Assembly: GCA_028280715.1 (NCBI GenBank)
Contig: JANQLG010000012.1
Span: 62,211-126,210 of the forward strand
Reading direction: 5' to 3'
DNA: 64,000 bases
Source: Spongiibacteraceae bacterium
GTDB lineage: Bacteria > Pseudomonadota > Gammaproteobacteria > Pseudomonadales > Dasaniaceae
Part shown: one piece after another, positions 20,351-50,191 of the stretch
Layout of the letters: each line of letters starts with the position of its first letter
Position numbering within the stretch: the stretch's first letter is position 1
Position numbers and translations under genes: made by a program
Notes under the pieces: generated by a model
The model's input: only the letters and a program-made list of their open reading frames with translations
The model's database searches: none
Told to the model about the DNA's origin: nothing

Positions 20351-21562
20351 TTAACCCTTAACACACACCACCTGCTTTAACGTGTGAACCACTTCCACCA
20401 GATCAGATTGGTTGGCCATCACCTCATCAATATCTTTGTAAGCGCCAGGAATTTCATCAATAACCTTTGAATCCTTCCTACATTCCACGCCCTTTGTTTG
20501 CTCTAACAAATCAGCACGCTTAAAGACTTTGCGTGCAGCACTGCGACTCATCCTGCGCCCGGCACCGTGAGAGCAACTGCAAAACGCATCCGCATTGCCC
20601 TTGCCTCTGACAATGTAAGAACGTGCGCCCATACTGCCCGGTATAATACCCAACTCGCCTTCTCGTGCACTAATCGCCCCTTTGCGCGTAACAAAAACGT
20701 TCTCGCCAAAATGTGATTCTTTCTGCACATAATTATGGTGGCAATTAATGGCAGTGTTTGTGACACTAAATTTTGGCAATAGTGGCTGGATGGCTCGTAT
20801 CACCAAACCCATCATTTGCTCACGATTGATGCGTGCATATTCCTGAGCCCAATTAACCGCTTCTATATAGTCATCAAAATAATCAGCGCCCTCGGTAAAG
20901 TACGCCAGATCTTTATCGGGCAAATGATGCTGATGCCTGGAAATATCTTTCCGGGCCAGCTGGATAAAATGTCTGCCTATGGCATTGCCAATACCTCGGC
21001 TCCCCGAATGCAGCATGATCCAGACTTGATCACTTTGATCGATACATAATTCGATAAAGTGATTACCACTACCCAAGGTTCCCATTTGTTTAACCCAGGC
21101 TTGCTGAGGCTGCCTCAGCATTTTCAGCAATACCGGGTGTTTTTCAAATAGTCGATCAACACCAGGCGCCAACGTTTGGCACGCCTTGGTTCTGGCAGAA
21201 ACTAATTTATGCGCGCTACTGCCCACTGGTACTGCACGCTCAATAGCTTCGCGAATATTTTTCAAGTTATCCGGCAACTGTGAACTTTTCAACGACAAAC
21301 ACACAGCATTCATACCACAACCGATATCGACACCCACCGCAGCAGGAATAATGGCGGACTTGGTTGGAATCACCGAGCCTACCGTTGCGCCAATGCCAGC
21401 ATGCACATCGGGCATAGCTGCAATATGTGAATGCACGATGGGCAGCTGCGCAATATTTTTTAATTGCGTCAAAGCAAGATTATCAATATCACGAGTATAA
21501 ATCTTTACCGGCTTCACGCCATTTTTTGCATTTTTGTTTAATTCGATTTTAACTGTCATCAC
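20351..21562 (-). CDS. rtcB2: RtcB-family RNA ligase, second paralog (3'-phosphate/5'-OH ligase)
   Basis: 403 aa with RtcB metal/GMP-binding motifs (MPDVHAGIG, GSGNHFIE, CHHNY, SCSHGAGR). Same TLKQVVCVKG C-terminus as the rtcB at 31178. About 50% identical to that copy by eye. Confidence 0.9.
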   Translation of the reverse strand: MMTVKIELNKNAKNGVKPVKIYTRDIDNLALTQLKNIAQLPIVHSHIAAMPDVHAGIGATVGSVIPTKSAIIPAAVGVDIGCGMNAVCLSLKSSQLPDNLKNIREAIERAVPVGSSAHKLVSARTKACQTLAPGVDRLFEKHPVLLKMLRQPQQAWVKQMGTLGSGNHFIELCIDQSDQVWIMLHSGSRGIGNAIGRHFIQLARKDISRHQHHLPDKDLAYFTEGADYFDDYIEAVNWAQEYARINREQMMGLVIRAIQPLLPKFSVTNTAINCHHNYVQKESHFGENVFVTRKGAISAREGELGIIPGSMGARSYIVRGKGNADAFCSCSHGAGRRMSRSAARKVFKRADLLEQTKGVECRKDSKVIDEIPGAYKDIDEVMANQSDLVEVVHTLKQVVCVKG

Positions 21563-21744
21563 GATACCACTATCAAATATTGATTAATGATTTCATCAAG
21601 TGCGCCGCAGCGCGACTCGCTCATCAGTTTCCTGGTGGCGAGTTTTGCTGCTTTGCGCTTGGCTCCATTGGATTTCTCATGCACCCCACCCTTTCGCATA
21701 ATGGGATTGATGGCATGAGGGTTTCTCCGTTTTTGCTTAGCCAT
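21559..21744 (-). CDS. Small highly basic protein (61 aa), hypothetical RtcB2-associated
   Basis: MAKQKRRNPHAINPIMRKGGVHEKSNGAKRKAAKLATRK... Overlaps the rtcB2 start by 4 bp, suggesting translational coupling. No family recognised. Confidence 0.4.
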   Translation of the reverse strand: MAKQKRRNPHAINPIMRKGGVHEKSNGAKRKAAKLATRKLMSESRCGALDEIINQYLIVVS

Positions 21745-21756
21745 TTTCTTCCTCCT

Positions 21757-22701
21757 CTAGGCGGCCATACGAAACCATTGTTGTTTTTTCAATGTTTTTA
21801 ACCGACGCTTGGCCTGTTTATCGCCAGCAATAAAGGAAGGGCCTTCATTGACTGTTTCAAAACAAAACTGCCTTGGCAGTTTGGTATACAGGGAGCGAGG
21901 CGGTTTTGAATAATTAATATGCTTCAATGCCGCACCTGTCTCAAAGCTATGGTAGTAAATTGTATTAATCCCTATTTCTTCTACCAAAAACTTAATAGCT
22001 GCACTCAACATCGCCTCACTCCATAGTGCTTTGTGTCGGTTAATTTCAGATTGCAAATAGGTCATTGCCCTATCGACATAAATATCTAATCCGTAATAGC
22101 AAAAGGCTTTTTCCTTTTCTTTAATTGCCAACTTCATTTCATCGGCCAAATATTCGACTTCGCGCAACCAATCATTCTGAATTTCTTCAATCAGTGCTTC
22201 ACCTGTATTAAAGTCCAGATCAATCCTGGCCCAAGCCAAAGTACTACGCGTATCAGATATAGGATGGGCAAAGAATTTAAACAAATCCAAATCGTTACCA
22301 ATGCAATGACGATAGATCTGATCGTGGCGGTTACAGAAATTCATCTGCAATACCAAGTTAGTACCGGGGCGAGAGGTTTGATAATAGCGATAACGCTTTA
22401 CCCTTTCCCTCCCCCATGTTCCTAAAGTCAAAACATAGGATTCGTAATTTTGTGGCCATAATGTCTCAATATCCTCTGCTCTAAGAACACCACTACCGCA
22501 ACGAGCCAACAACGATGTAAATAAAGGCTTATTCATTAACTTGCCTAACTTACTTTTCTTTAAATCCGCCACCTGGCTAGGTCCATTACGTAGCAAATTG
22601 CGCTGTAATAAATAAGCCGCGTAATAATCCTTATAATAAGTAAATAAGGTCCTATCCTTTGGCAGGCAATCAATAATTTCCTGTGCTAATTTTGCTTGCA
22701 T
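21757..22701 (-). CDS. Hypothetical protein (314 aa), first gene of the rtcB2 operon
   Basis: No recognisable motif. Ends 13 bp before the small basic ORF. Confidence 0.45.
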   Translation of the reverse strand: MQAKLAQEIIDCLPKDRTLFTYYKDYYAAYLLQRNLLRNGPSQVADLKKSKLGKLMNKPLFTSLLARCGSGVLRAEDIETLWPQNYESYVLTLGTWGRERVKRYRYYQTSRPGTNLVLQMNFCNRHDQIYRHCIGNDLDLFKFFAHPISDTRSTLAWARIDLDFNTGEALIEEIQNDWLREVEYLADEMKLAIKEKEKAFCYYGLDIYVDRAMTYLQSEINRHKALWSEAMLSAAIKFLVEEIGINTIYYHSFETGAALKHINYSKPPRSLYTKLPRQFCFETVNEGPSFIAGDKQAKRRLKTLKKQQWFRMAA

Positions 22702-22785
22702 TTTTCACCCCTTATTGCCTTTTTTAAGGCATAAGCATCCCTTCATCGGCAGATAAAACTGCAGACGACAAAAACATTACTTAGA

Positions 22786-22807
22786 GAACTAAGTAATCAC
22801 TATCAGA
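22786..22807. promoter_or_regulatory. Palindrome ATTACTTAG-AGAA-CTAAGTAAT in the 368-bp gap upstream of the 314-aa gene
   Basis: Perfect 9-bp inverted repeat with a 4-bp spacer. Candidate operator. Confidence 0.3.
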
Positions 22808-23069
22808 AAAGTTGGGAGTTACAGGAAATCAGTATTAACTGAAAAATTGACCGGCAAGGCCCAACAATGTGACAGAATTTTTATTGATAAACATATCGAG
22901 CCTCCTTTTGATTAGGGTTAATGTGAATAAAAAATCAGCGACGCTGCTGATGGGCGCGAACTATAGTTAGATCACTATTTATTTTCAAGTAAAAATATAA
23001 ATTTTTTGAAAAAATTGTATTACTACCGAAAAATATCACTCTCAAAAACAATCGCTTGATCAAGGAGCA

Positions 23070-23837
23070 TTAATCAATCACCTTTCGAAAAACCTCATCG
23101 TATGCACTTAACTTTACAGCATCACCAACGGGGACCTGTTCAGCTCTGTTTTTAATCGCATCGTAGCAGGACAACATATAATCCTGAATCTCCGGATTGA
23201 TATTTACCTTTGCGCTTTCAGTGAGATGCTGTTTTTCCACTAATAGCTGATCTATTAGTAAACTTATAGAATGACCCTGAAAATATCTATCCTTAAGATA
23301 TTGGAACGGTACAGGAGGGTTGGTATTTTCATCGACAATCCATTGTGCACAAAGTAATGACCTTAACGCATAGAGACAACTCTTGGCGTTATTCCATACC
23401 TTATCATCCTCCAGCTTTTTCTTTGCCATGGACAAATAATGGTAAAAAACTGCCTTGGCATTAAAAGACTGAGCGGCCAACTCCTTGAGCAAGACAACCT
23501 TCGATGTGTCCTGACGATAGACAATGGGAGAATAAAGCCATTCGAACAGTGGCCCATTACCCTTTTTTAGCAAGCGCAAGGACTTACCAATATCCCATCC
23601 ACCCGCATCCAGATCGCCAATGAATACTGTATCGATCACATCGCGTTTTTCAAAGGGCGATAGATACCAATGAGCTGGATGGCAATAGATAAAACGTACA
23701 TCGTAATCGCTGTCTTTAGATGCAAAGCCCCAGGCTCGACTACCTGTCTCAACTGCTAGCAGTATAGTAACGTCATTACTGGTTTCTATTTTCGTCAGCA
23801 AGCTGAGTATTTCTTGTTGTTTATTCACTGGTGTCAA
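23070..23837 (-). CDS. Pol-beta superfamily nucleotidyltransferase (RNA-repair-associated, RlaP-like)
   Basis: GS-x9-DxD signature (VETGSRAWGFASKDSDYDVRF). Overlaps the upstream paralogous NTase by 4 bp. Lies in a cca/rtcB context. Confidence 0.6.
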   Translation of the reverse strand: MTPVNKQQEILSLLTKIETSNDVTILLAVETGSRAWGFASKDSDYDVRFIYCHPAHWYLSPFEKRDVIDTVFIGDLDAGGWDIGKSLRLLKKGNGPLFEWLYSPIVYRQDTSKVVLLKELAAQSFNAKAVFYHYLSMAKKKLEDDKVWNNAKSCLYALRSLLCAQWIVDENTNPPVPFQYLKDRYFQGHSISLLIDQLLVEKQHLTESAKVNINPEIQDYMLSCYDAIKNRAEQVPVGDAVKLSAYDEVFRKVID

Positions 23838-24739
23838 TCGCCTTTAGCACGCAACACTATGGACTCAATTTCTCGCAGGGCTGCAACGGCTTTATCCTCC
23901 GTGACAATGCATGCATCTAATGAACCATAATGCTGCTCTAAACACTCAAGCAATAATGCTTTGATCGCCTGTTTATCGGCTGCCAGCGGCAATTGGCTAT
24001 CCAGGTAAAGTTGTTCCAATTGTTTTTCCTTATCCGCAAAGTAGTCTTCGACTTGTTGCTGCGTCCAATCTCCTCTACGGATCGCTTTTAACTGTTCTTT
24101 GTTTCTTGCTAAATCCAAATCCTGCTCAACCAGGATTTGTTCTATTTCATTCAACAGACGAACAACGTGATAAGCAAATTTCACATCGTAACCAAATTGT
24201 TCAATGATCTTTTGGCGACCACCTTCCGGAACCTTGGTACGCATTTTATGTATTTGCGCATAGGCATAACCTTTAAATCGCGCCCAGCTACCTTTATGTA
24301 GAAAAATATGTCGCTTTTCACGGACACGCTCACCCACTGCCGTGCTATATAGCACGCAGTTTCTAGGTACAAATAATGAATCGATGATATTGGGGTTGTT
24401 ATCCATTAACAGTCGAAAGTATTTAATGACCGAATAGATGGTTAGATCATATTCACGCCCCTTCCCGCCCATGGCTGATTTATCGATCATATGATGTTGC
24501 TGGATTTGTTCAAACATCGGCTCAGTATCATCGAAACCAGGTATCTCTCCACGCAAGTGAGGAAACACCCAATCACGTGGGGGAATCGCAAAACCATAGA
24601 CATCCATATCTGAATGATCTCCAGCGACACCATAGGCTATCGAACCCATCACCACTTCATATTGAACCGCTGTATCCAAAAATTTGGGAGGTGATTTTAA
24701 CAACCCCATTTTTATTAAATGCTGAGTTTTACTGCTCAT
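23834..24739 (-). CDS. Pol-beta superfamily nucleotidyltransferase (second, RlaP-like)
   Basis: MGSIAYGVAGDHSDMDVYGF nucleotidyltransferase motif. Directly downstream of cca. Confidence 0.6.
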   Translation of the reverse strand: MSSKTQHLIKMGLLKSPPKFLDTAVQYEVVMGSIAYGVAGDHSDMDVYGFAIPPRDWVFPHLRGEIPGFDDTEPMFEQIQQHHMIDKSAMGGKGREYDLTIYSVIKYFRLLMDNNPNIIDSLFVPRNCVLYSTAVGERVREKRHIFLHKGSWARFKGYAYAQIHKMRTKVPEGGRQKIIEQFGYDVKFAYHVVRLLNEIEQILVEQDLDLARNKEQLKAIRRGDWTQQQVEDYFADKEKQLEQLYLDSQLPLAADKQAIKALLLECLEQHYGSLDACIVTEDKAVAALREIESIVLRAKGD

Positions 24740-24765
24740 TACATCCTTTCCTTTTAGTAGCCGTT

Positions 24766-26001
24766 TTATACGGCAGAGCGCACACTAGCCATATACTTAG
24801 CTATCGCTGTAATTCTTAAACGCCTTATTTGTTCGGCCAACTTTACACCTTCATAGCCTTGTTCAAGCAACGGTTTAACATCAACATTCTTTGCCTCATC
24901 ACCACAGCGAATCAAAAGCTCGCCATTGGGATAATCTCGATGCTCTAAACCTTTTCTACCTCTAGCATCGGCTTCACAGGCCTGTGCAAAGTAGCGCACT
25001 CTTTCTGGCCTTCGAATACCATCAAGCGATTCCAGCAGACGCATGATCGAGCGCGGTTGCATTTCTAGCATTTTATGACAGCGCAAGTGATTTTTAGTCA
25101 CCTGTATAGCGATATCACGAAAGTCATTAGGCACTTTGTATCGCTCACAAACATGTTCAACCAGGGGAACGCCATTGTCCTCATGCCGAATATGTTTCGG
25201 CCACTCGTCTTCAGGGGTTAACCCTTTACCGAGATCGTGAAGTAAACCTGCCCAGGTGACCACCAGCTCATTATATTTAGATCGCGCCAAATCGATAACG
25301 GCCATCACATGATCCCCGGTATCAATCTCCGGATGATATTGCTCAGGCTGAGGAACACCAAACAAACAATCCACCTCAGGCAACAAAACCTTGAGTGCAC
25401 CACATTGTCTAAGCACAAGAAAAAACTCACTGGGTTTTGGCTCAGTTAATGCCCGAGACATTTCTTTCCAAACACGCTCTGGTGTTAATTCCTCTAATTC
25501 TCCCTCATCGACAAGCTGCTTCATCAATGCCAATGTGTCATCATGAACGGAAAAACCTAACTCTCCATAGCGGGCTGCAAATCTGGCAACCCTTAACACC
25601 CTAAGCGGATCTTCGACAAATGCCTCAGAAACATGGCGCAGTAATTTATTGCCTAAATCATCTCGCCCACCATATGGATCAACATAGCTACCATCTTCTT
25701 TTTTTGCGATGGCATTGATTGTCAGATCCCGGCGGGATAAATCATCTTCTAAGGTCACCTCTGGACCGAAATCACACACAAAGCCCGTATGCCCTTTACC
25801 CGATTTTCTTTCTGTTCTGGCCAGCGCGTATTCATCTTTTGTTTCTGGGTGAAGAAAACAGGGAAAATCATTACCAATTTGTTGGTAACCTAGCGACAAT
25901 AACTCCTCTTGGGTAGAGCCAACAACCACCCAATCTCTATCCGCTACGGGGCGACCAAGCAATTCATCACGGACCGCACCTCCTACTAAATATTTTTCCA
26001 T
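24766..26001 (-). CDS. cca: Multifunctional CCA-adding tRNA nucleotidyltransferase with HD domain
   Basis: Near-collinear with E. coli Cca (YLVGGAVRDELLGRPVADRDWVV...RDLTINA...HD domain LHDLGKG). The ATG at 26001 (MEKYLVGG) is used rather than the ORF-track start at 26019. Confidence 0.9.
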   Translation of the reverse strand: MEKYLVGGAVRDELLGRPVADRDWVVVGSTQEELLSLGYQQIGNDFPCFLHPETKDEYALARTERKSGKGHTGFVCDFGPEVTLEDDLSRRDLTINAIAKKEDGSYVDPYGGRDDLGNKLLRHVSEAFVEDPLRVLRVARFAARYGELGFSVHDDTLALMKQLVDEGELEELTPERVWKEMSRALTEPKPSEFFLVLRQCGALKVLLPEVDCLFGVPQPEQYHPEIDTGDHVMAVIDLARSKYNELVVTWAGLLHDLGKGLTPEDEWPKHIRHEDNGVPLVEHVCERYKVPNDFRDIAIQVTKNHLRCHKMLEMQPRSIMRLLESLDGIRRPERVRYFAQACEADARGRKGLEHRDYPNGELLIRCGDEAKNVDVKPLLEQGYEGVKLAEQIRRLRITAIAKYMASVRSAV

Positions 26002-26016
26002 TAATTCCACCAGTAA

Positions 26017-26055
26017 CAAAAAAAGCGGCTATTTATCTACTAATAAACAGCCGCT
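26017..26055 (-). terminator. Rho-independent terminator after the SPFH gene
   Basis: On the minus strand, AGCGGCT...AGCCGCT forms a 7-bp GC stem plus an extended AU stem, followed by TTTTTTT. It sits between the SPFH stop and the cca start. Confidence 0.55.
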
Positions 26056-26060
26056 TAACT

Positions 26061-27206
26061 TTAATTTGGGGACAATTTAACCAAGTCATTCAAGACACCG
26101 TCAAGACCACCATACACAGAGATCTTGTCGATACGCTCAGTGACTCGCTCCAATGACTCCAACTCTTTAAGCCGCAATAGGGTTGGGTTGTTTTCCATCA
26201 TTTTTGCGGTGTTATGCAATGAACGCATCGCTTGAGTTTCTTCGCGACGCTTGATCAAGTTTGCTTCAGCTTCTTTTTGAGCTTCTACTACCTGATTCAA
26301 AATCACTTTCATATCACCAGGCAAAACGATGTCCTTCACACCCACGCTTTGCAGCACAATACCGTATTCCTTGAATTTATCGCGAACACTTTCCGCAATA
26401 ACAGTATTGAGAGAGTCTTTATCCTCCAATAACTGGTCCAAAGTTTTGGTACCAACCGCTTCTCGCAAACGCAACTGCAGCTCACGATAGATGAAACCTG
26501 CGTAATCACTCAGCTTCAGTGCCACGATTTCTGGGCTATCGATACGATAACTCGCAGATAGATTGATTCGCAAACTGACACGATCCTTAGTCAAAATTTC
26601 TTGACCATTGACCTCTGCTACTTGCAAACGCATATCCAGTAACTTAACAACCACTGAACGATTGTATTTCCAGAAACCATAGCTACCTGGCTCTAAGATT
26701 TTTTCAAGCTTACCATTTACCAATAACAAACCCACATGTTCATCTGGCACTTCGTTGTAGCTAATCGCACGAGCAACTTCTTTACTCGCGCCAATCTTTA
26801 AGCCACGACCCAATAAACCAATTAACTTTTCATCAATTTGGTAATTGGCATCAATATCAATAACGTCGACGCGGACATCTTCAACATCTTTCCAGAATAC
26901 ATATAAAGAGCCTGGTGCCAACACATCCACTAAGTGACGATCTCGATAGATCAAGCCTACTTGAGTATCAGTCAATTCAACACGATCCAAATAGTCTGAA
27001 AGCTTATCAGCATAAGTATTTAGCAAGAATTTGGTATTCTTGTGCTCAAATTCCACAGCAGTGACATCATAGGTTTCAAGTTTTATATCACCACTGATAA
27101 TTTCCACACGGTGACGACCTGGACCTAATACACCAACAAATCGATTACGGCGATACATCAATGCCTTTTGACTATCAGCGATATCAATTGTTTTCCATAG
27201 CAACAT
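26061..27206 (-). CDS. Cytoplasmic SPFH/band-7 (slipin-like) domain protein
   Basis: 381 aa with no N-terminal TM. SPFH core plus a C-terminal coiled coil (EAQKEAEANLIKRREE). Confidence 0.7.
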   Translation of the reverse strand: MLLWKTIDIADSQKALMYRRNRFVGVLGPGRHRVEIISGDIKLETYDVTAVEFEHKNTKFLLNTYADKLSDYLDRVELTDTQVGLIYRDRHLVDVLAPGSLYVFWKDVEDVRVDVIDIDANYQIDEKLIGLLGRGLKIGASKEVARAISYNEVPDEHVGLLLVNGKLEKILEPGSYGFWKYNRSVVVKLLDMRLQVAEVNGQEILTKDRVSLRINLSASYRIDSPEIVALKLSDYAGFIYRELQLRLREAVGTKTLDQLLEDKDSLNTVIAESVRDKFKEYGIVLQSVGVKDIVLPGDMKVILNQVVEAQKEAEANLIKRREETQAMRSLHNTAKMMENNPTLLRLKELESLERVTERIDKISVYGGLDGVLNDLVKLSPN

Positions 27207-27570
27207 AATATTACTCCTTCTATTACAAACTTAATAAGGCGAGGCTCACCCAGGATCAACGAGGTTATTGATTTGCATACTTTAGGCAAAGAACAACAGC
27301 GGCTTGCTGCGTAATGATTCAAAGCATTTCCTAAGTTAAAAACTCTTCCTTAAACCGAGCTTTTACAATCATTACGGGTCAAACATGTTGTCTCCGCGTA
27401 AAGCATGAACCCATCAACAACGGCGATGATGCCGGCGTTTCAAACGTTGATAAACCTCATCAACGATTAAAACTATGAGCCTCTAACAGATTTTTATGCA
27501 AGGACCTGAACCTTGTGGGGACTCGAACCCCTAGTCTCTCGACTATACCAAGAGTCGTTTTTCAGACGAC

Positions 27571-27646
27571 GGTTACTTTGACAGGAATCGAACCTGCGGC
27601 CTATCGATTATGAGTCGACTGCTCTACCCAACTGAGCTACAAAGTA
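27571..27646 (-). tRNA. tRNA-Met/Ile2 (anticodon CAT), AU-rich acceptor stem
   Basis: Cloverleaf read by eye: acceptor UACUUUG/CAAAGUA, D-arm GCUC-AGUUGGGUA-GAGC, anticodon loop CUCAUAA, T-arm GCAGG-UUCGAUU-CCUGU, discriminator A, followed by CC. Confidence 0.75.
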
Positions 27647-27772
27647 CGGGCTTTAAGGTTTTGATACAGATTGGTACACACGACACCAGAGATGCTTGTG
27701 CCAGGCCGACATTCAGAGACGACTCCGCTAACCTGCCAACAACGGCTTAAAGTCTTTTGCAACTTGCTACGA

Positions 27773-28336
27773 TTAAGCAGCAAGCCAACATCTTTGCCCA
27801 CTAAAACGGGCTTTTAAGTATTCCATCTGATCACCACGAATCTGGCGATTATCCAGATACATAAATTCAAAAATATTCGGCGCAAAAGGAATGGCTAATA
27901 ATTCCATACCTGCTTGTTCTGGAGTACGACCACCTTTATGGTGATTGCACCGTTCACATGCAGCGACAACATTGGTCCAACAATCCTTACCACCTTGTAC
28001 ACGTGGCACAATGTGATCACGCGTTAACTGCCTGTTATCGAATTCCATTCCACAATACATACAACGTTGACCATCACGCCGAAACAACATCCTGTTAGTT
28101 AGCAGTGGTTCGAAGTTTTGTTTTCCAACATCACCACTGCAGGCAATGATCGGAGCTAGTTGCAAACTTGACTGCAAGCCTTCGCGGTTTACTCCACCAA
28201 AGATCCATAATGACTCAGAACCAAGACTCCAAATCACTTGCTCTTTTACATACATAGTGGCCGCTTCTTGACGGGTTACCCAAGCTTGAGGAACCCCTGA
28301 CTTATTCAATTTCAAAATGCGAGTTTGCTCTTTCAT
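27773..28336 (-). CDS. HNH endonuclease
   Basis: C-terminal HNH motif (CMYCG...LTRDHIVPRVQGG...CERCNHHKG). Embedded between the tRNA array and tRNA-Met. Confidence 0.85.
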   Translation of the reverse strand: MKEQTRILKLNKSGVPQAWVTRQEAATMYVKEQVIWSLGSESLWIFGGVNREGLQSSLQLAPIIACSGDVGKQNFEPLLTNRMLFRRDGQRCMYCGMEFDNRQLTRDHIVPRVQGGKDCWTNVVAACERCNHHKGGRTPEQAGMELLAIPFAPNIFEFMYLDNRQIRGDQMEYLKARFSGQRCWLAA

Positions 28337-28414
28337 ACTCCTACCTCTACTTCATCACTTTCACTCTCACAAATAAAGATGCACTTCCCCTGTGCGACTT
28401 ATCATCCGTAAGCT

Positions 28415-28492
28415 GGTACCCAAGGTGAGAGTCGAACTCACAAAATCAACAGATTCTAAATCTGCACGCTTTGCCAATTTGCGTACCTGGGT
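28415..28492 (-). tRNA. Atypical class-I tRNA with anticodon TAG (Leu-like D-arm and anticodon loop, no long variable arm)
   Basis: ACCCAGG-UA-CGC-AAAUUGGCAAA-GCG-U-GCAGA-UUUAGAA-UCUGU-UGAUUUU-GUGAG-UUCGACU-CUCAC-CUUGGGU-A-CCA. D-arm and anticodon loop resemble tRNA-Leu(UAG), but the variable region is only 7 nt. Confidence 0.55.
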
Positions 28493-28539
28493 AAATTTTG
28501 TGTGCACACATCCCTTGTGCTTGTCTTTCATCCTTAAAC

Positions 28540-28614
28540 TGGTTGGGGCAATGGGAATCGAACCCACCTCCGCCGGATTAAAAGTCCGGTGCACAACCGC
28601 TATGCCATACCCCA
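28540..28614 (-). tRNA. tRNA-Lys (anticodon TTT) with Gln-like U1-A72 body
   Basis: UGGGGUA.../...UGCCCCA-A-CCA acceptor. Anticodon arm CCGGA-CUUUUAA-UCCGG. T-loop UUCGAUU. Confidence 0.65.
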
Positions 28615-28630
28615 TCTTTCGAAAATAAAT

Positions 28631-28708
28631 TGGTCAGAGTGGTAGGACTCGAACCTACGACCCCCTCCATCCAAAGGAGGTGCGCTAACCAGACTGCGCT
28701 ACACTCTG
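28631..28708 (-). tRNA. tRNA-Pro (anticodon TGG)
   Basis: CAGAGUG-UAGCGCAGUCUGGUUAGCGC-A-CCUCC-UUUGGAU-GGAGG...GGUUCGAGUCC...CACUCUG-A-CCA. Confidence 0.8.
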
Positions 28709-28723
28709 AAAATCTTTTTACTA

Positions 28724-28798
28724 TGGAGTGCGCAACTGGAATCGAACCAGTGAAAACGGAAGTTGCAGTTCCGCGCATTACCTCTCTGCCACACGCAC
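28724..28798 (-). tRNA. tRNA-Cys (anticodon GCA)
   Basis: Anticodon arm CGGAA-CUGCAAC-UUCCG. Discriminator U73 then CCA. T-loop UUCGAUU. Confidence 0.75.
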
Positions 28799-28817
28799 TT
28801 TTTGCTCATTGTAAAAG

Positions 28818-28891
28818 TGGCTACGGTGTCCGGACTCGAACCGGAATCCTCGGAGTCAAAGTCCAATGCGTTACCATTTCGCCACACCGCA
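28818..28891 (-). tRNA. tRNA-Gln (anticodon TTG)
   Basis: U1-A72 start, discriminator G73 and CCA encoded. Anticodon arm UUGGA-CUUUGAC-UCCGA. T-arm UCCGG-UUCGAGU-CCGGA. Confidence 0.75.
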
Positions 28892-28901
28892 AAAAATTTG
28901 G

Positions 28902-28972
28902 GGTGATGCCGGGAATTGAACCCTGGTCTCCTGGTCCACAGCCAGGCGCTCTACCACTGAGCTAACATCACC
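28902..28972 (-). tRNA. tRNA-His (anticodon GTG), CCA not encoded
   Basis: GGUGAUG acceptor. D-arm GCUC-AGUGGUA-GAGC. Anticodon arm CCUGG-CUGUGGA-CCAGG. One mismatch in the T-stem. C73 is followed by CAA. Confidence 0.7.
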
Positions 28973-28978
28973 ACAATT

Positions 28979-29062
28979 TGGTGGGGAGGGAGTCGAACCC
29001 CCAAAGCTTTCGCGACGCGTTTACAGCGCGCTAGAGTTGCCACATCTCTTCTGTGCCTCCCC
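28979..29062 (-). tRNA. tRNA-Tyr (anticodon GTA), class II with long variable arm
   Basis: Anticodon loop CUGUAAA is identical to E. coli tRNA-Tyr. 3' end is ...UUCGACU-CCCUCCCC-A-CCA. The T-arm/acceptor register could not be resolved cleanly by eye. Confidence 0.55.
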
Positions 29063-29068
29063 GCTATT

Positions 29069-29143
29069 TGGCTGGCCTGGTAGGGGTCGAACCTACGATT
29101 CTCCGGTTAACAGCCGGACGCTTTACCACTCAGCTACAGACCA
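29069..29143 (-). tRNA. tRNA-Asn (anticodon GTT)
   Basis: UGGUCUG.../CAGGCCA-G-CCA. Anticodon arm UCCGG-CUGUUAA-CCGGA. T-arm GUAGG-UUCGACC-CCUAC. U1-A72 is normal for tRNA-Asn. Confidence 0.8.
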
Positions 29144-29235
29144 ACAATTTTTAAGCGACCACATTGTTAAAAAACAGCTACCGTGTTGGCGGGTAGCGCA
29201 CCATGTCATTCAAAAAAATTCTACCGTAAAAAAAC

Positions 29236-29269
29236 AAAACCCCGGCTGGGTTCACCAACCGGGGTTTTT
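29236..29269. terminator. Bidirectional rho-independent terminator between rtcA and the tRNA array
   Basis: AAAACCCCGGCTGG-GTTCA-CCAACCGGGGTTTTT. GC-rich 9-10 bp stem flanked by A/T runs on both sides. Confidence 0.6.
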
Positions 29270-29506
29270 GATTACAAACTCCACTCCGGTTGGCACTAGC
29301 CTCCCGGAATTTCCAAAAGACTAGATTTTCGTTTTTTCACCTACAGACATCACTAGGTGACTTACATTTTTATTAGGCAGACTTTGCCCCTGCTTGCGAC
29401 ACTGCAAACATAAAAACCTTTCATTTATTGACAAATCTTTTGTCGTTTTCCTAAATAAATGGCATATCAAATTAACGATTACCTCTACGCAAAAATTTAC
29501 AGACAT

Positions 29507-29550
29507 AAAAAAACCCGATAGATATTTTTCAAAAATACCTACCGGGTTTT
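29507..29550. terminator. Second hairpin with flanking A/T runs (possible terminator)
   Basis: AAAAAAACCCGATAG...CTACCGGGTTTT. Imperfect stem with a large loop. Confidence 0.3.
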
Positions 29551-29859
29551 AAACTTGTTTAAAGCTATTCAACCTGGAAGGCATAAGTGCCTTCCAAAAA
29601 GAAAGACACTGCTACCGATTATTCTCCACATGCGTGAGTGGGTTAATAACCATACGAATGCTATAACAGCACTGCATTAGGTTTTGTTGACCAAAAAATT
29701 TACTCATTACTTTTACTATTCGTTTTGCTTTATTTAAATCTTAATGAAAAATTAAAAAATTATTTCCATCAATTTAGTTGCAGCAATAATAGTATTCAAA
29801 ATTTCAAAGTCAACAAATTATTTATGAAAATATATACTTTATTAAAAAATTTATATTTT

Positions 29860-30885
29860 CTAAACACAAACCTCCCATACACCTTTTTCAATTTCACTCA
29901 ATTGAATATCAATATTCATTAACTGACTTATAATACTAATGTTAGTTAACAGGTGTTGACTTGGTTTTAGCGTTCGAAAAATACCACCCACACCCAATAC
30001 CATTGGCAACAACAACTGATCTGCCAGATATTCTCCTACACTAACATCAACTTTAAGGTAGCGTTTTACTTCTCGAATCGCCTTTTTTGCCACTCGCTCA
30101 GCACTAACACCATGCTCACCTACAACTTCTACCACTTCACTGACGTTTTCACTACACAAACGCAGTGAGAGAATATTGCCAGGACCTTGAGAACGTACAA
30201 GCTGTTGCTTAAGTGTCGACGCTGGCCACAACCCAATACGCCTAACTTGATCAAGTTCTCGTTCAGTAATATGCTCTGGTAAACACGCCGAAGTCGCAAC
30301 GGCTAAACGTGAAACTTCACGGCCACGTTCAACCAAATTTAGCCTTGTGGTTTTCTGCACTGGATAAATTCTTACACGCCAGGCACCACCGCCAGCAGGA
30401 TAAAAACCATAACGTTGTAACTCGACATCAGCCCGATAGCCCATTTGTGCAATAGCTGGCAAAAAACACTCAGCAATAAAATCAAAGCTAGGCGCAAATC
30501 CGTTATGTGTGCCACCTTCGAGATAAATTTCACTCACCTCTTTAGCGAATAACAGTGGCATATATACTGTTTGGAAAACCAAACTGGTACTGCCAGCTGA
30601 ACCCACTGAGAATCGGTATTCTCCAGCTTTAATCATCCCTGGCCTAAAAGTAACTTCCCTAGAACCCAATTCATCACCGGTTATTTCTGCATCGCAAATC
30701 ATTTGCGCAGCTCGTAGGCAAGTTAAGTGCTGCCGCAGCAAACCAGGCTTGGAACGACCTGCACGAATATTTTGTATTCGCACCGATTTTCCTAAACACA
30801 TTGCCAGGGTCAATGACGTTCGAAATATCTGTCCGCCACCCTCTCCTAATGAACCATCTATTACAATCACACTATTTTTCCTCAT
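29860..30885 (-). CDS. rtcA: RNA 3'-terminal phosphate cyclase
   Basis: Collinear with E. coli RtcA (IDGSLGEGGGQIFRTSLTLA...RAGRSKPGLLRQHL...FYPAGGG...GEYLADQLLLPM). Start taken at the ATG at 30885 (MRKNSV). The ORF-track TTG extension translates the upstream tRNA-like element. Confidence 0.9.
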   Translation of the reverse strand: MRKNSVIVIDGSLGEGGGQIFRTSLTLAMCLGKSVRIQNIRAGRSKPGLLRQHLTCLRAAQMICDAEITGDELGSREVTFRPGMIKAGEYRFSVGSAGSTSLVFQTVYMPLLFAKEVSEIYLEGGTHNGFAPSFDFIAECFLPAIAQMGYRADVELQRYGFYPAGGGAWRVRIYPVQKTTRLNLVERGREVSRLAVATSACLPEHITERELDQVRRIGLWPASTLKQQLVRSQGPGNILSLRLCSENVSEVVEVVGEHGVSAERVAKKAIREVKRYLKVDVSVGEYLADQLLLPMVLGVGGIFRTLKPSQHLLTNISIISQLMNIDIQLSEIEKGVWEVCV

Positions 30886-31177
30886 GTTTATTTGGTGGAC
30901 GTGACGGGATTCGAACCCGCGTATAACAACAACCAAGGCATTACTCTTGGTCAGTCATAGACTTGGAAACGCGCGCCAGCTGACACCCGCATTAGAGCAT
31001 CGAGCCTGCATCCTCAACCGTACATCTATCACTGATTACGTTGCCACCAGTTTTACCCGGCTACCTTCATGCTAATCATTTTAGGTAGTGACACTCCCTA
31101 CGCATCAGCACACCCTATAATCTCAAACAAATAGTGCCGTCCCTTGGCACTATCCCTTGGTACAATGAAACATCCCT
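30886..31177 (-). ncRNA. Candidate structured ncRNA in the rtcB-rtcA spacer, ending in a tRNA-like T-arm/acceptor/ACCA module (Y-RNA/YrlA-like?)
   Basis: The 292 nt between rtcB stop and rtcA start has no convincing ORF. The minus-strand 3' end reads ...GCGGG-UUCGAAU-CCCGU-CACGUCC-A-CCA and sits immediately before the rtcA ATG. An anticodon-like hairpin ACCAAG-AGUAAUGC-CUUGGU lies just upstream. A distal GGGUGUG (about 230 nt upstream) could pair with the CACGUCC acceptor strand. Confidence 0.35.
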
Positions 31178-32404
31178 TTACCCTTTTACACACACCACTT
31201 GTTTTAAGGTGTACACGATTTCCACTAAATCCTGTTGCGCCTCCATCACTTTATCGATGGGCTTGTACGCAGCCGGTGTTTCATCAATCACACCTTTGTC
31301 TTTTCGGCACTCAACATCCGCTGTTGCCTGAAGGTGCTCTTCCAAAGACACCATTTTTTTTGCTTTAGTGCGCGACATCACGCGACCTGCACCATGGCTA
31401 CAACTACAGAAGCTTTCTTCGTTGCCAAGTCCGCGAACAATGTAAGACCGAGCTCCCATGCTTCCGGGGATAATACCCATTTCACCTTCGCGAGCGCGTA
31501 CCGCACCTTTGCGTGTAACCAACACATCTTTTCCATAGTGGTGCTCGCGAGACACATAATTATGATGACAGTTCACCGCTTCCATCCGCGCCTCAAAGAT
31601 CATCCCTAATTCTTCGGTAACCGCTGCGATAACACGAGCCATCATTACTTCTCGGTTAATACGTGCAAAATTTTGTGCCCATTCCACCGCTTCGACATAC
31701 TCATCAAAATGTTCAGTACCTTCTGGCAAGTAAGACAGGTCACTATCAGGCAAATGAATATGCCAACGCTCCATATCTTTCTTAGCCACTTCAATAAAGT
31801 GCGTACCAATGCAGTTACCAACACCACGTGAGCCGCTATGCAACATAAACCATACTCGACCATACTCATCCAAACACACTTCGATAAAGTGGTTGCCAGT
31901 ACCTAAAGTACCCAGATGGTTAATGTTGTTGGTATTTTTCAATACCGGATGTTTATCTACTAACACATCAAATTGTGCTGACAGCGGCATCCAGGCTTTC
32001 ATCACATCATCAGGGACATTACACCACGCACCTTTATCCCGCTTACCGCGCAAACGCCTTGAACGACCATGCGGTACTGCTTTTTCAATCGCATCACGAA
32101 TACCGGCCAAGCTATCAGGCAACTGCTCCGCGGTCAGGCTGGTTCGCACCGCCATCATCCCGCAGCCGATATCTACTCCAACGGCTGCAGGAATCACCGC
32201 ACCTAATGTAGGAACGACGCTGCCAATTGTTGCACCCTTGCCAAGGTGGACATCCGGCATTGCCGCCACCCATTGATGAATAAAGGGCATTCGCGAAATA
32301 TTCTTTAATTGCTCTTTAGCATCTTCTTCAAAAGGAACGCCTCGGGTCCAAGTTTTGATAGGTACACCACCGTCTTGCATTACTTCATAGCGCTCTTGAG
32401 TCAT
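31178..32404 (-). CDS. rtcB: RNA-splicing ligase RtcB
   Basis: 408 aa with canonical RtcB motifs (MPDVHLGKG, GTGNHFIE, CHHNY, SCSHGAGR). Divergent from rtcR. Confidence 0.95.
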   Translation of the reverse strand: MTQERYEVMQDGGVPIKTWTRGVPFEEDAKEQLKNISRMPFIHQWVAAMPDVHLGKGATIGSVVPTLGAVIPAAVGVDIGCGMMAVRTSLTAEQLPDSLAGIRDAIEKAVPHGRSRRLRGKRDKGAWCNVPDDVMKAWMPLSAQFDVLVDKHPVLKNTNNINHLGTLGTGNHFIEVCLDEYGRVWFMLHSGSRGVGNCIGTHFIEVAKKDMERWHIHLPDSDLSYLPEGTEHFDEYVEAVEWAQNFARINREVMMARVIAAVTEELGMIFEARMEAVNCHHNYVSREHHYGKDVLVTRKGAVRAREGEMGIIPGSMGARSYIVRGLGNEESFCSCSHGAGRVMSRTKAKKMVSLEEHLQATADVECRKDKGVIDETPAAYKPIDKVMEAQQDLVEIVYTLKQVVCVKG

Positions 32405-32469
32405 TGCCTTGTCCTTTAAGTACTGAGTACTTATTAATAATTTTTATCCCATCTCTTTGCCTATGAGTA

Positions 32470-32486
32470 TTGCGAAGGCAGTGCCA
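32470..32486 (-). promoter_or_regulatory. Sigma54-type promoter (-24 TGGCAC, -12 TCGCA) upstream of rtcB
   Basis: The minus strand reads TGGCAC-TGCCT-TCGCAA about 65 nt upstream of the rtcB start. Matches the GG-N10-GC consensus expected for RtcR-dependent rtcBA transcription. Confidence 0.5.
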
Positions 32487-32631
32487 ACATTCTTAAAAAG
32501 GTAGAAAATATTTTTATCTTATTGTTTTTAAAGGTTTTATTTTTAGCAGAGTAAAAATTCAAGAAGTTTATCATTCGATTGAATGTATATTTTTATATCT
32601 ATTTTGATATCTATATATTATATTTGATAGC

Positions 32632-34224
32632 ATGAAAACCGTAGCGATCAGCATTCTAGGTACCACTATGGACCGTCGTGGTAAGGGCGAAAAACGCTGG
32701 GACAAATGGCGCCCCACCATTTCCATGTGCCAACACGATGACCTATTGATTGATCGTCTGGAACTGCTATTCGACAACCACTCGCAGAGCCTGGCTGAGC
32801 AAGTCAAAGAGGATATCGCCCGCGTCTCTCCAGAAACCGAAGTGATTTATCACCACGTCAACTTTCATGACCCCTGGGATTTTGAAACGGTCTATGGCGA
32901 ATTGCTCGACTTTGCACGAGGCTATTCTTTTAAACCAAGTAAAGAGCGCTACCTAACACACATCACAACCGGCACCCACGTTGCTCAAATCTGCTTGTAT
33001 CTGTTGACCGAAGCTGGCTACCTGCCAGGCCAATTAATCCAAACATCCCCGGCACCTAGAAACAGTAATGTAGCAGGCCAATATCAAATTATTGATCTGG
33101 ACTTATCCAAGTACGATCAAATTGCGTCGCGCTTTAAAAAGGAGCACTTTGAAGGCACCACTTACTTAAAGGGAGGAATAAAAACCAATAACAAAGCCTT
33201 TAACCAAATGATCGAGCAATTGGAGCAGGTATCGATTCGCTCAAGTGAGCCGATTCTTTTAACTGGCCCCACCGGCGCCGGCAAATCACAACTGGCCCAA
33301 CGGATTTATTCACTAAAAAAACAGCGCGGCCTAATCAGCGGTAATTTGGTCGTCGTCAACTGTGCGACCTTAAAAGGTGAGAATGCCATGTCTGCGTTAT
33401 TTGGCCATAAGAAAGGCGCCTTTACCGGTGCAACAACCGATAGAGCAGGCCTGCTTCGCGAAGCCGATGGCGGCATGTTATTTCTGGATGAAATTGGAGA
33501 ACTTGGTACGGACGAGCAAGCCATGCTGCTACGCGCAATAGAAGATAAAAAATTTATGCCATTCGGCGCTGACAAAGAAACCACCAGCAATTTCTTATTA
33601 ATCGCTGGTACTAATCGCGATTTGAGCGGTCAAGCTCAACGGGGAGAATTCCGCGAGGATTTACACGCCCGCATTGATTTGTGGACCTATCGACTACCTT
33701 CACTTTCAGAAAGGATGGAGGACTTCGAACCAAATCTCGATTATGAACTGGAGAATTACTCCACCAAAACCGGTTATCTCATCAGCTTTAACAAAGATGC
33801 CAGAAAAAAATACCTGCAGTTCGCAACATCGACAGAAGCCACATGGTCAGCCAATTTTCGGGACCTCAATGCCAGCATTACACGCATGGCAACCCTGGCC
33901 AATGGCGGTAGGATTACTGTAAGCGTCGTTAATGAAGAAATTGACCGACTGCAACACAAGTGGCAATCGACAAGCAATAAAAGCCACACCAATGACACAA
34001 CATTACTCAAATCCATTCTCGGTGAAAACAAGATTAAGTCACTGGACTTATACGAGCAGATGACACTAGCACCGGTATTAAAAATTTGTCAAAGCGCCAA
34101 CTCTATGGCCGAAGCAGGAAGAATCCTCTTCAATGTGAGCCGGGAGCAGAAAAAATCCAATAACGACTCACATCGGATAAAACAGATCCTGGATAAACAC
34201 CAGATTAAGTTTGGCGACCTATGA
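32632..34224 (+). CDS. rtcR: Sigma54-dependent transcriptional activator RtcR (CARF-AAA+-HTH)
   Basis: N-terminus collinear with E. coli RtcR (KTVAISILGTTMDRRGKGEKRWDKWRPT...HITTGTHVAQICLYLL). Central AAA+ sigma54-interaction domain (LLTGPTGAGKS...GAFTGA...LFLDEIGEL). Confidence 0.9.
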   Translation: MKTVAISILGTTMDRRGKGEKRWDKWRPTISMCQHDDLLIDRLELLFDNHSQSLAEQVKEDIARVSPETEVIYHHVNFHDPWDFETVYGELLDFARGYSFKPSKERYLTHITTGTHVAQICLYLLTEAGYLPGQLIQTSPAPRNSNVAGQYQIIDLDLSKYDQIASRFKKEHFEGTTYLKGGIKTNNKAFNQMIEQLEQVSIRSSEPILLTGPTGAGKSQLAQRIYSLKKQRGLISGNLVVVNCATLKGENAMSALFGHKKGAFTGATTDRAGLLREADGGMLFLDEIGELGTDEQAMLLRAIEDKKFMPFGADKETTSNFLLIAGTNRDLSGQAQRGEFREDLHARIDLWTYRLPSLSERMEDFEPNLDYELENYSTKTGYLISFNKDARKKYLQFATSTEATWSANFRDLNASITRMATLANGGRITVSVVNEEIDRLQHKWQSTSNKSHTNDTTLLKSILGENKIKSLDLYEQMTLAPVLKICQSANSMAEAGRILFNVSREQKKSNNDSHRIKQILDKHQIKFGDL

Positions 34225-50115: not shown

Positions 50116-50191
50116 TGGTCGGGACGGCAGGATTTGAACCTACGACCACCACACCCCCAGTGTGGTGCGCTACCAGACTGCGCTACGCCCC
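50116..50191 (-). tRNA. tRNA-Pro (anticodon GGG)
   Basis: CGGGGCG-UA-GCGC-AGUCUGGUA-GCGC-A-CCACA-CUGGGGG-UGUGG...GGUUCAAAUCC...CGUCCCG-A-CCA. Canonical cloverleaf. Confidence 0.85.

Follow-up and report, generated by a model that had tools for sequence, protein, structure and literature searches.

Gene content of the island

The subject of this analysis is an island of RNA-repair genes in a Spongiibacteraceae bacterium (assembly GCA_028280715.1, contig JANQLG010000012.1), carried on a stretch of 64,000 nucleotides (positions 62,211 to 126,210 of the contig) that we call the window and to which all coordinates refer unless a related locus is named. The island spans positions 20351 to 34224 (14 kb), and on the open reading frame (ORF) map all of its genes lie on the minus strand except rtcR, which lies on the plus strand. 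Pfam and NCBIfam profile searches assign its protein families as RtcR, RtcB (two copies), RtcA, Cca, RlaP (two copies), SPFH/Band-7, and HNH. Between these protein genes lie a tRNA array and three further structured, tRNA-like RNAs or conserved RNA regions, described below. An earlier note on this DNA had proposed the identities RtcR, RtcB, RtcA, HNH, SPFH, Cca, and nucleotidyltransferases, all of which are borne out by the profile searches, and had placed every gene from rtcB to rtcB2 on the minus strand with rtcR divergent, in agreement with the ORF map.

To place the island among its relatives, one genome per species was scanned with the SPFH protein, yielding 67 loci that were annotated with the window proteins and ARAGORN; Porticoccus sp. 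W117 (L073) and the metagenome loci L074–L087 lie beyond these 67. Loci are cited by these numbers where they need to be told apart.

The rtcR–rtcBA operon

The gene rtcR (32632–34224, plus strand) encodes an RtcR/CARF-type N-domain (PF06956, 7.4e-85) and a sigma-54 AAA+ domain (PF00158, 1.2e-46). It is divergent from rtcB, as are its orthologues in most related loci; in the window the spacer between the two genes is 227 nt. On the minus strand, rtcB (RtcB1, 31178–32404; PF01139, 1.6e-133) encodes the 3'-phosphate/2',3'-cyclic-phosphate RNA ligase, whose orthologues beside RtcR in relatives are 82–89% identical, and rtcA (29860–30885; PF01137 (RTC), 4e-76) encodes the RNA 3'-phosphate cyclase. 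The two genes form one unit, with a 292-nt spacer that holds a tRNA-like RNA and no terminator consensus. The start of rtcA is likely the ATG at 30885, replacing the listed TTG at 30936, because the longer ORF overruns this RNA; tblastn matches to rtcA elsewhere begin at residues 16–27 of the long ORF (16–18 in three of the four loci checked).

A sigma-54 promoter-like site (TGGCACTGCCTTCGCA, 32471–32486, minus strand) lies 67 nt upstream of rtcB with one mismatch to TGGCAC-N5-TTGCW, and its TTCGC variant is also found at the front of the operons of L008 and L015. The window-wide count of matches to this consensus equals chance, so the argument for the site rests on its position and on its conservation in these two loci. 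With a divergent CARF/AAA+ RtcR, a sigma-54 site, and RtcB together with RtcA, the locus has the sequence features expected of an RtcR-controlled rtcBA operon.

A long tRNA-like RNA between rtcB and rtcA

The rtcB–rtcA spacer holds a 223-nt tRNA-like RNA (30893–31115, minus strand) that nhmmer finds in 16 loci: the window, L002, L003, L008, L010, L015, L074–L078, L080, L081, L083, L085, and L087. It is built from a 7-bp acceptor stem followed by ACCA (the CCA is encoded), a D-arm, a T-arm, and an insert of ~150 nt that holds a near-invariant core, GAGGAUGCAGGCUCGAUGCUC...GCGGGUGUCAGCUGGCGCGC. The fold is supported by covariation among 14 sequences, in which 96.5% of the cells are paired, as against 35–50% in slid controls, and compensatory changes occur in 32 of 61 pairs, as against 4–11 in the controls; none of 500 shuffles reaches the observed values. 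Each of the 13 distinct sequences has G·U as pair 3:70, pairs 4–7 covary, and the ACCA is invariant. The combination of G3·U70, A73, and CCA is the alanine identity set common to tRNA-Ala and tmRNA.

A metagenome scan with the 19-nt core returned 10 further true copies and four chance matches, while 2.9 million viral contigs scanned with the core yielded none. The RNA occurs in two contexts only, either inside rtcR–rtcB operons or in tRNA arrays, of which it is mostly the first element. It directly follows the sigma-54 promoter in L008 and L015, whereas it stands at the head of the array in L074, L077, L080, L083, and L087 and is the second element in L003. Its presence in both rtc operons and tRNA arrays therefore constitutes a physical tie between the two modules.

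The RNA resembles tmRNA in its G3·U70 acceptor stem, A73, CCA, T-arm, and long helix leading to an internal domain, but differs in its length of 223 nt, its true D-stem, its extra hairpins, and the lack of a conserved tag frame. It is also recognized by neither ARAGORN nor Rfam, and no smpB gene is adjacent. Rfam has no family for it, the partial match to RF00023 (tmRNA) scoring 20 bits against a gathering score of 47, and ARAGORN -m calls no tmRNA in the window or in 87 loci. We rejected a tag ORF because the frame is not conserved: after GCA GGC UCG AUG CUC, the sixth codon is a stop or a sense codon depending on the sequence, and the candidate tag bases fall in conserved helices. More broadly, tmRNA, YrlA, and other Rfam families were considered for the three RNAs of the island, and nothing rose above noise in Rfam or ARAGORN. 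The search for a Y RNA gave no Rfam match at E ≤ 1 and no Ro/TROVE family among the ORFs of the cluster that were searched.

The tRNA array and the HNH protein

The tRNA array occupies 730 nt (28414–29143, minus strand; ARAGORN and Rfam, 50–68 bits). In the direction of transcription it reads Asn(GTT) at 29069–29143, Tyr(GTA)-like at 28979–29064, His(GTG) at 28900–28972, Gln(TTG) at 28818–28891, Cys(GCA) at 28724–28798, Pro(TGG) at 28631–28708, Lys(TTT) at 28540–28614, and Leu(TAG) at 28414–28492. Nine tRNA genes had been counted here; ARAGORN and Rfam call eight, one of which is the mimic described in the next section, which leaves seven ordinary genes and one degenerate Tyr-like gene. The latter is too degenerate to be called, and is 83% identical over 70 nt to the orthologous, called tRNA-Tyr of L026. 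The Lys, Asn, and Gln genes are near-identical to those in the arrays of L002, L073, and L076. No other gene in the window carries an anticodon of the array, the only other tRNA gene being tRNA-Pro(GGG) at 50116–50192. Across loci the arrays hold 4–16 tRNAs, with 12–15 in L003–L005. The D-arms of several array tRNAs look atypical by eye.

The usual targets of anticodon nucleases are tRNAs for Tyr, His, Asn, and Asp (colicin E5), Lys (PrrC and RloC), Gln, Lys, and Glu (gamma-toxin-like), and Cys, Leu, and Pro (VapC or MazF). The isoacceptors of the array overlap these targets; the larger arrays of relatives span most isotypes, so the overlap may lack meaning.

Ahead of the array lies a leader element (29153–29202, minus strand) made of a covarying hairpin, a T-run, and then AACAATGTGGTCGCTT. 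It is conserved before the arrays of L003 (4398–4447), L004 (5005–5056), and L005 (4947–4998), and it may either terminate the preceding unit or serve in the regulation or processing of the array.

Downstream of the array, a gene at 27773–28336 (minus strand) encodes a 187-aa HNH protein (PF14279, 1.7e-17; PF01844, 4.9e-13). The family is tightly conserved, at 57–76% identity across genera. The gene lies directly after an array in 10 loci (L002–L005, L026, L038, L041, L062, L073, and L076) and near one in L074 and L087; in 13 loci besides the window it immediately precedes the tRNA mimic.

The b7a-tRNA and the SPFH/Band-7 protein

At 27571–27646 (minus strand) lies a gene that ARAGORN labels tRNA-Met(CAT) and that had been taken for an ordinary tRNA. 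We identify it as a band-7-associated tRNA mimic (b7a-tRNA) by its variable anticodon loop and its place before Band-7: in 57 of 62 loci, the SPFH gene is preceded by a co-oriented tRNA-like gene at a distance of 167–589 nt. Among 41 aligned sequences, the D-stem (GCUC/GAGC) and the T-loop are invariant, and the acceptor, anticodon, and T stems show abundant compensatory changes, whereas the "anticodon" takes ~20 different values and its loop is of non-standard length in 10 loci. An unconstrained anticodon within a covarying cloverleaf indicates a structural mimic and not a decoding tRNA. The b7a-tRNA was predicted as a partner of RtcB and Band-7 by Burroughs and Aravind (2016), as relayed by Wang et al., in whose account it had never been validated experimentally (bioRxiv 10.1101/312249); in the literature searched, the term occurs in that preprint alone.

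The mimic does not stand by itself. Upstream of it is a 69-nt leader that folds into a three-way junction (27667–27735, minus strand); among 33 sequences and 25 pairs, 95.8% of the cells are paired, as against 31–39% in slid controls, and 16 of the 25 pairs show a compensatory change. A candidate sigma-54 promoter in this region was rejected, the TGGCAC at 27703 sitting in a conserved leader hairpin and the -12 element missing in nearly all loci. Downstream, a trailer conserved in ~40 loci (27473–27570, minus strand) comprises a hairpin (27570–27554), a GNRA-type hairpin fused to a second T-arm (27545–27517; GGGGUUCGAGUCCCC, with the second T-arm GGGGTTCGAGTCCCC), another hairpin (27515–27499), and the motif AGAGGCYCAUGG (AGAGGCUCAUAG, 27484–27473). 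The second T-stem covaries, its second pair being changed on both sides in 13 of 41 sequences. With leader and trailer both conserved around the b7a-tRNA, the conserved RNA upstream of the SPFH gene is therefore ~260 nt long, not 76. Within the trailer, CAAGG can pair with either an upstream CUUG or a downstream CCUUG, making alternative structures possible.

The SPFH/Band-7 protein itself (26061–27206, minus strand; PF01145, 2e-30) has no transmembrane segment, its maximum Kyte–Doolittle average over 19 residues being 0.95, and it is taken to be soluble because it lacks a hydrophobic segment. SPFH proteins, flotillin for example, are known to build large cages. Orthologues were found in the 67 loci, most of which have RtcB within 10 kb. 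Encoding Band-7 near RtcB, with a tRNA-like gene tied to Band-7, the locus belongs, by its gene content, with the Band-7/b7a-tRNA systems of RtcB.

cca, two RlaP genes, and the p314–p61–rtcB2 module

Beyond Band-7 follows cca (24766–26001, minus strand), which encodes a multifunctional CCA-adding and repair enzyme with an HD domain and scores 621 bits against the NCBIfam equivalog PRK10885 (NF008137; cutoff 451). Its Pfam domains, PolyA_pol, PolyA_pol_RNAbd, and HD, are those expected of a class II CCA-adding enzyme, and its start is probably Met7 of the listed ORF. Two nucleotidyltransferase genes come next on the same strand, RlaP2 (23834–24739; PF10127, 1.5e-16), which is divergent, and RlaP1 (23070–23837; PF10127, 2.7e-66). 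RlaP1 and RlaP2 are 22% identical to each other and score 224 and 61 bits, respectively, against the curated PF10127 cutoff of 23. Orthologues of RlaP2 that are 81–84% identical follow Cca in L002, L004, L005, L008, and L015.

The last genes of the island, all on the minus strand, encode p314 (21757–22701), a conserved RtcB-associated protein of 314 aa; p61 (21559–21744), a very basic protein of 61 aa with the motif P-[IL]-[ML]-RKGGVHEKS; and RtcB2 (20351–21562; PF01139, 5e-130), a second RtcB ligase. RtcB2 is 57% identical to RtcB1 and 60–63% identical to the RtcB proteins embedded in the arrays of L003–L005 and L026. Neither p314 nor p61 matches a Pfam, NCBIfam, or PADLOC family, and sequence-level annotation of p314 against the PDB found nothing. 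The protein has more than 820 homologues and a confident AlphaFold model with a predicted local distance difference test score (pLDDT) of 91.4, and may have a GNAT-like fold; no acyl-CoA motif (R/Q-x-x-G-x-G/A) is evident by eye among its conserved columns.

An RtcB gene with p314 and a small basic ORF also occurs in two unrelated loci, Candidatus Albibeggiatoa (L068) and a metagenome contig (L069), where the p61 motif is found in small ORFs after the p314 homologues (L068 9000–9140; L069 9012–9221). The idea that the rtcB2 module travels with rtcRBA is not supported by these loci, which lack RtcR and RtcA; judged by its genes, the set of RtcB, p314, and a small basic protein is an independent, recurring module.

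In L004 (13871–16865; Cellvibrionaceae chromosome OZ245996.1), a p314 homologue stands with a release-type RtcB and with PrfH (RF-1 domain) where the window has p314–p61–rtcB2, an arrangement that links p314 to the PrfH/RtcB pair for ribosome rescue and repair. The window contains no PrfH-like sequence, and a remnant of PrfH or of a release-type RtcB, looked for in the gap at 22702–23069, was not found there.

Recurrence in related genomes

The 67 loci come from Cellvibrionaceae, Microbulbifer, Halieaceae, Marinobacterium, Hahella, Alteromonas, Shewanella, Endozoicomonas, Kangiellaceae, and Burkholderiales; the closest relatives of the island are metagenome-assembled genomes of Cellvibrionaceae (84% SPFH identity) and Porticoccus. 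Their commonest core consists of RtcR, a divergent RtcB(–RtcA), a tRNA-like gene, and Band-7, after which RlaP often appears and, in some cases, a further RtcB. The tRNA-like gene comes first after RtcR in L042, L044, L049, L053, and L058.

The fuller order seen in the window, RtcR divergent from RtcB–RtcA and then the array, HNH, b7a-tRNA, and Band-7, is repeated in L002/L076, Porticoccus sp. W117 (L073), and Aquabacterium (L041), so that the full combination is known from Cellvibrionaceae, Porticoccus, and Burkholderiales. Variants of it carry an array with an embedded RtcB2 ahead of HNH, the mimic, and Band-7 (L003, L004, L005, and L026), or an array before HNH, the mimic, and Band-7 (L038 and L062, with an RtcB after Band-7 in L038 only); in the metagenome loci L074 and L087, the array and HNH are together but in another order. 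Band-7 is followed by Cca in six loci, of which L002, L004, L005, L008, and L015 also have RlaP2 (and RlaP1), while none was detected in L026.

These comparisons bear directly on what had been claimed from the window by itself. The linkage of array and rtc genes, for which recurrence beyond this genome had been set beforehand as the test, is found across Gamma- and Betaproteobacteria. The association of cca with RlaP stands as well, with Cca after Band-7 in six related loci and RlaP next in five, L026 having Cca and no detected RlaP. It had also been asked whether the array and the rtcB2 module always accompany rtcRBA: the linkage of the array is recurrent, and the rtcB2 module is independent. 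The borders at 20351 and 34224 are correct, because the genes that flank the island (MarR, DCC1-like, DUF4166, and saccharopine dehydrogenase on one side, two ORFs without a family on the other) are shared with none of the 67 related loci (0/67). The GC content of the island is that of its flanks.

Transcription units

The genes had been described as separated by short gaps, yet four spacers are long: 292 nt between rtcB and rtcA, 716 nt between rtcA and the array, 566 nt between HNH and SPFH, and 368 nt between RlaP and p314. Structured RNAs lie in at least two of these four gaps and terminator-like hairpins in three, which argues for about four transcription units and not one operon; on sequence grounds, the island reads as four or more. 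The view of the island as a single RtcR-controlled cassette is not supported, given that the sole good sigma-54 promoter is upstream of rtcB and that two strong hairpins resembling intrinsic terminators come after the rtcA region and one after SPFH. The last of these, directly 3' of SPFH in the promoter and terminator scan, has 15 bp and a T-run (26023–26056, minus strand). Direct control by RtcR is likely only for rtcB, the long tRNA-like RNA, and rtcA.

Relation to described systems

The combination of genes had been held not to be a described architecture, but much of it is in print. RtcB with Band-7 and a tRNA-like gene, and RlaP in RtcB operons, go back to Burroughs and Aravind (2016), as cited in 10.1101/312249, PMC12776372, and PMC7824862; a CCA-adding enzyme is among the phage RNA-repair functions in the jumbo-phage survey of the same laboratory (PMC7824862); and arrays with HNH and rtcB have also been published. 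Each pairwise association is already in the literature, which makes the claim of an undescribed architecture too strong; the conserved combination appears to be new. Within the literature searched, four elements appear to be new: the array and HNH gene nested between an RtcR-controlled rtcBA and b7a-tRNA/Band-7; a separate recurring module of RtcB, a possibly GNAT-like protein, and a small basic protein; the b7a-tRNA inside a multi-domain RNA of ~260 nt; and a long G3·U70 tRNA-like RNA common to rtc operons and tRNA arrays.

The RtcB/Band-7/b7a-tRNA operons, as they are known from the papers that cite Burroughs and Aravind, share with the window an RtcR-linked RtcB, a soluble Band-7 after a tRNA-like gene, and RlaP in the locus. 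The rtcR–PaFlo8–rtcB–rlaP–rtcA locus of P. aeruginosa, which likewise has an SPFH protein within it, is a member of this type (PMC13086221, PMC12776372). To these operons, as far as the citing papers describe them, the window adds an array of 7–8 genes and HNH between rtcBA and b7a-tRNA, two RlaP paralogues, a second RtcB whose partners are the possibly GNAT-like p314 and a small basic protein, the ~260-nt RNA around b7a-tRNA, and the 223-nt RNA between rtcB and rtcA.

The rsr–yrlBA–rtcBA operon of Salmonella and the rtcBA operon of E. coli (RtcR/sigma-54; PMC7790460, PMC4201824, PMC9650030) have the same divergent CARF RtcR, sigma-54 promoter, RtcB, and RtcA, as well as tRNA-mimicking non-coding RNAs inside the operon. 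They differ in that the window has no Ro60/Rsr and carries Band-7 in place of Ro. The RNAs of the window are neither YrlA nor YrlB, and Rfam gives no match for them. In YrlA a loop closes the acceptor-like stem, whereas in these RNAs the ends pair into an acceptor stem and the CCA is encoded.

The long tRNA arrays of cyanobacteria (L-arrays) carry a conserved HNH gene and, in Anabaena, are co-regulated with it and with rtcB under translational stress; they spread horizontally and have been proposed to refill or buffer the tRNA pool (PMC8421152). The likeness to the window lies in an extra tRNA array, an adjacent HNH gene, RtcB nearby, and some degenerate tRNAs, the HNH gene being compared with the cyanobacterial one (All8564) by gene context. 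By the definition given in PMC4758250 (at least 20 tRNA genes at two or more per kb), the array of the window reaches the density but not the gene number, with seven called genes and one degenerate gene in 730 nt; the neighbourhood trait of L-arrays, HNH beside the array and RtcB embedded or adjacent, is present. The cyanobacterial arrays hold up to 43 tRNAs, as against eight in the window, which sit inside an rtcR/rtcBA–Band-7 locus, and the proteobacterial arrays carry b7a-tRNA and often have the long tRNA-like RNA at their head. TrcR-type repeats feature in the regulation of the cyanobacterial arrays.

A probable chromosomal RNA-damage-response island

We consider it probable that the locus is a chromosomal RNA-damage-response island built of modules that comparative genomics has already linked to RtcB-type RNA repair. 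The domain identities and the recurrent synteny bear out the reading as an RNA-repair locus, and the locus could plausibly act against anticodon nucleases. What we observed are the identities of the genes, the RNA structures, the synteny, and the motifs of promoters and terminators; from these we would infer the functional steps below, any co-regulation among the modules, and the kind of agent that does the damage.

The first module would consist of rtcR and the divergent sigma-54 promoter that drives rtcB, the long tRNA-like RNA, and rtcA. The CARF domain of RtcR is known from Salmonella to bind tRNA 5' halves with a cyclic phosphate (PMC7790460), and if the locus works as its counterparts in Salmonella and E. 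coli do, tRNA 5' halves with a terminal 2',3'-cyclic phosphate would bind this domain and turn the operon on, RtcA would make or maintain cyclic ends, and RtcB would reseal the breaks. The second module, which follows two terminator-bounded units, would comprise the seven or eight extra tRNA genes, HNH, the b7a-tRNA with its leader and trailer, and the soluble Band-7 protein. Its presumed spare tRNAs may replenish or buffer the cleaved species, and the tRNA mimics and the Band-7 protein may serve the repair enzymes as cofactor, scaffold, or decoy. In the third module, the products of cca and the two RlaP genes would replace, ahead of ligation, the nucleotides that broken ends and the CCA tail have lost; RlaP supplies damaged tRNA halves with nucleotides before they are ligated and puts back those that "smart" ribotoxins remove (PMC12776372; PMC7824862). 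The fourth module would consist of p314, p61, and RtcB2, a second ligase unit that moves on its own and may act on a different substrate, possibly the ribosome.

Several observations weigh against this reading or narrow it. RtcR and RtcA are absent from the otherwise similar L003–L005 and L026, and the cassette of array, HNH, b7a-tRNA, and Band-7 is therefore not dependent on them. The cluster has no further good sigma-54 site, and together with the strong terminators this speaks against RtcR control beyond rtcBA. Members of the HNH family are also found by themselves, away from any tRNA gene. The cluster yielded no identifiable nuclease toxin gene, and PADLOC matched no defence system on the island beyond generic HNH matches, on which account membership in a defence system was rejected. 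The "spare" status of cca and the array tRNAs, finally, is a presumption, the analysis having covered the 64 kb of the window.

The lone HNH homologues are those of L071 (Spartinivicinus marinus) and L072 (Gynuella sp.), which are 69–72% identical and have no tRNA, RtcB, or Band-7 within 9 kb; the family is therefore not confined to RNA-repair loci.

Alternative explanations

The fate of the array is the first point on which another account can be given, in which the array and HNH are a horizontally spreading, selfish, or phage-derived cassette of the L-array type that landed by the rtc/Band-7 locus, serving codon supply or counter-defence, with HNH as a homing endonuclease and the array not integral to repair. 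Such a cassette would fit the widely varying array content of 4–16 tRNAs, the degenerate tRNA-Tyr-like gene, the D-arms that look atypical by eye in several array tRNAs, and the precedent of L-arrays that spread horizontally with an HNH gene (PMC8421152). We nonetheless find it quite unlikely, given that the order of array, HNH, b7a-tRNA, and Band-7 is fixed across two proteobacterial classes and that HNH adjoins b7a-tRNA even without an array (L018, L019, and L021). The HNH protein, at 57–76% identity across genera, is unlike typical homing endonucleases, RtcB2 is embedded inside arrays, and the long tRNA-like RNA is common to arrays and rtc operons. A phage origin in particular was tried by scanning the viral contigs with HNH, SPFH, and the RNA core, and was rejected: the 2.9 million contigs returned one weak HNH match (28% identity) and nothing else, so that neither HNH nor SPFH has a close relative there and the RNA core is absent too.

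Another account would be fortuitous juxtaposition, a housekeeping tRNA operon and cca having come to lie between rtcRBA and a second rtcB with no functional link. Bacterial tRNA operons of 4–8 genes are common, Cca scores as a standard equivalog, terminators separate the units, and the GC content is like that of the flanks. Against these stands a gene order that returns in a dozen loci or more, which represent different families and two classes and never share their flanking genes; cca follows Band-7 in six loci with RlaP next in five, and one of the "tRNAs" is a mimic with an unconstrained anticodon. Chance placement is in our view highly improbable.

The substrate of the second ligase invites a different proposal, namely that p314, p61, and RtcB2, perhaps with the long tRNA-like RNA, serve ribosome or rRNA rescue and repair instead of tRNA repair, in a tmRNA-like or PrfH-like pathway in which an alanine-charged RNA and RtcB act on stalled ribosomes. 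A release-type RtcB paired with PrfH has been demonstrated to rescue damaged ribosomes and repair them (PNAS 2022, cited in PMC12776372). In L004, p314 comes after such a pair, and the gene order makes the same arrangement probable in L002, L008, L015, and L026. The invariant G3·U70 with A73-CCA of the long tRNA-like RNA and the very basic character of p61 would suit such a role. The window, however, has no PrfH; the long tRNA-like RNA has no conserved tag frame, no tmRNA call by ARAGORN, and 20 bits to the Rfam tmRNA model against a gathering score of 47; and no smpB gene is adjacent. We regard ribosome rescue as an unlikely function for this module.

The reading as an RNA-damage-response island can also be taken further than we have taken it above. 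The long tRNA-like RNA may belong to an undescribed class of alanine-accepting, tmRNA-like mimics that marks RtcR/RtcB operons and supernumerary tRNA arrays, which have until now been investigated separately, couples the two functionally and, with b7a-tRNA and a soluble Band-7 cage, organizes a "tRNA pool insurance" machine for sensing, repairing, re-tailing, and replacing cleaved tRNAs. We offer this as a tentative idea and hold it to be rather doubtful as a whole. Its central element, a long tRNA-like RNA with an invariant alanine identity pair, is a concrete and testable lead that joins rtc operons and tRNA arrays.

The locus offers a compact genetic system in which to approach the natural substrates of the widespread bacterial RtcB systems and the parts that their RNA and Band-7 partners play. 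Together with its relatives, it sets two ligases beside a damage sensor, enzymes for end healing and nucleotide restoration, presumed spare tRNAs, and three structured mimics of tRNA. The relatives include culturable marine bacteria such as Porticoccus and Microbulbifer, in which one could ask if an extra tRNA array serves for repair or as a buffer when anticodon nucleases act, and which functions the mimics have.

Minor features of the spacers

Two small terminator-bounded units fill the spacer between rtcA and the array (29236–29813, minus strand). A sigma-70-like promoter found in the promoter scan (29813–29786) and conserved in Porticoccus opens the region, followed by a conserved hairpin, CCUGGAAGGC...GCCUUCCAGG (29595–29576), a first strong terminator (29550–29510), a possible 61-aa ORF (29506–29321), and a second strong terminator (29268–29236), all on the minus strand. 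Matches to His_leader, trpB, and rnk at 29228–29621 were set aside as sub-threshold Rfam hits that resemble terminators. The arrangement of promoter, hairpin, and two terminators is found again in Porticoccus L073 (7679–8349, corresponding to 29236–29859 of the window), with poorly conserved sequence.

In the 368-nt gap ahead of p314 (22702–23069) are a promoter-like site and a weak terminator. After them comes a 19-codon ORF, MFINKNSVTLLGLAGQFFS (22835–22894, minus strand), with a strong Shine–Dalgarno sequence, AAAGGAGG.

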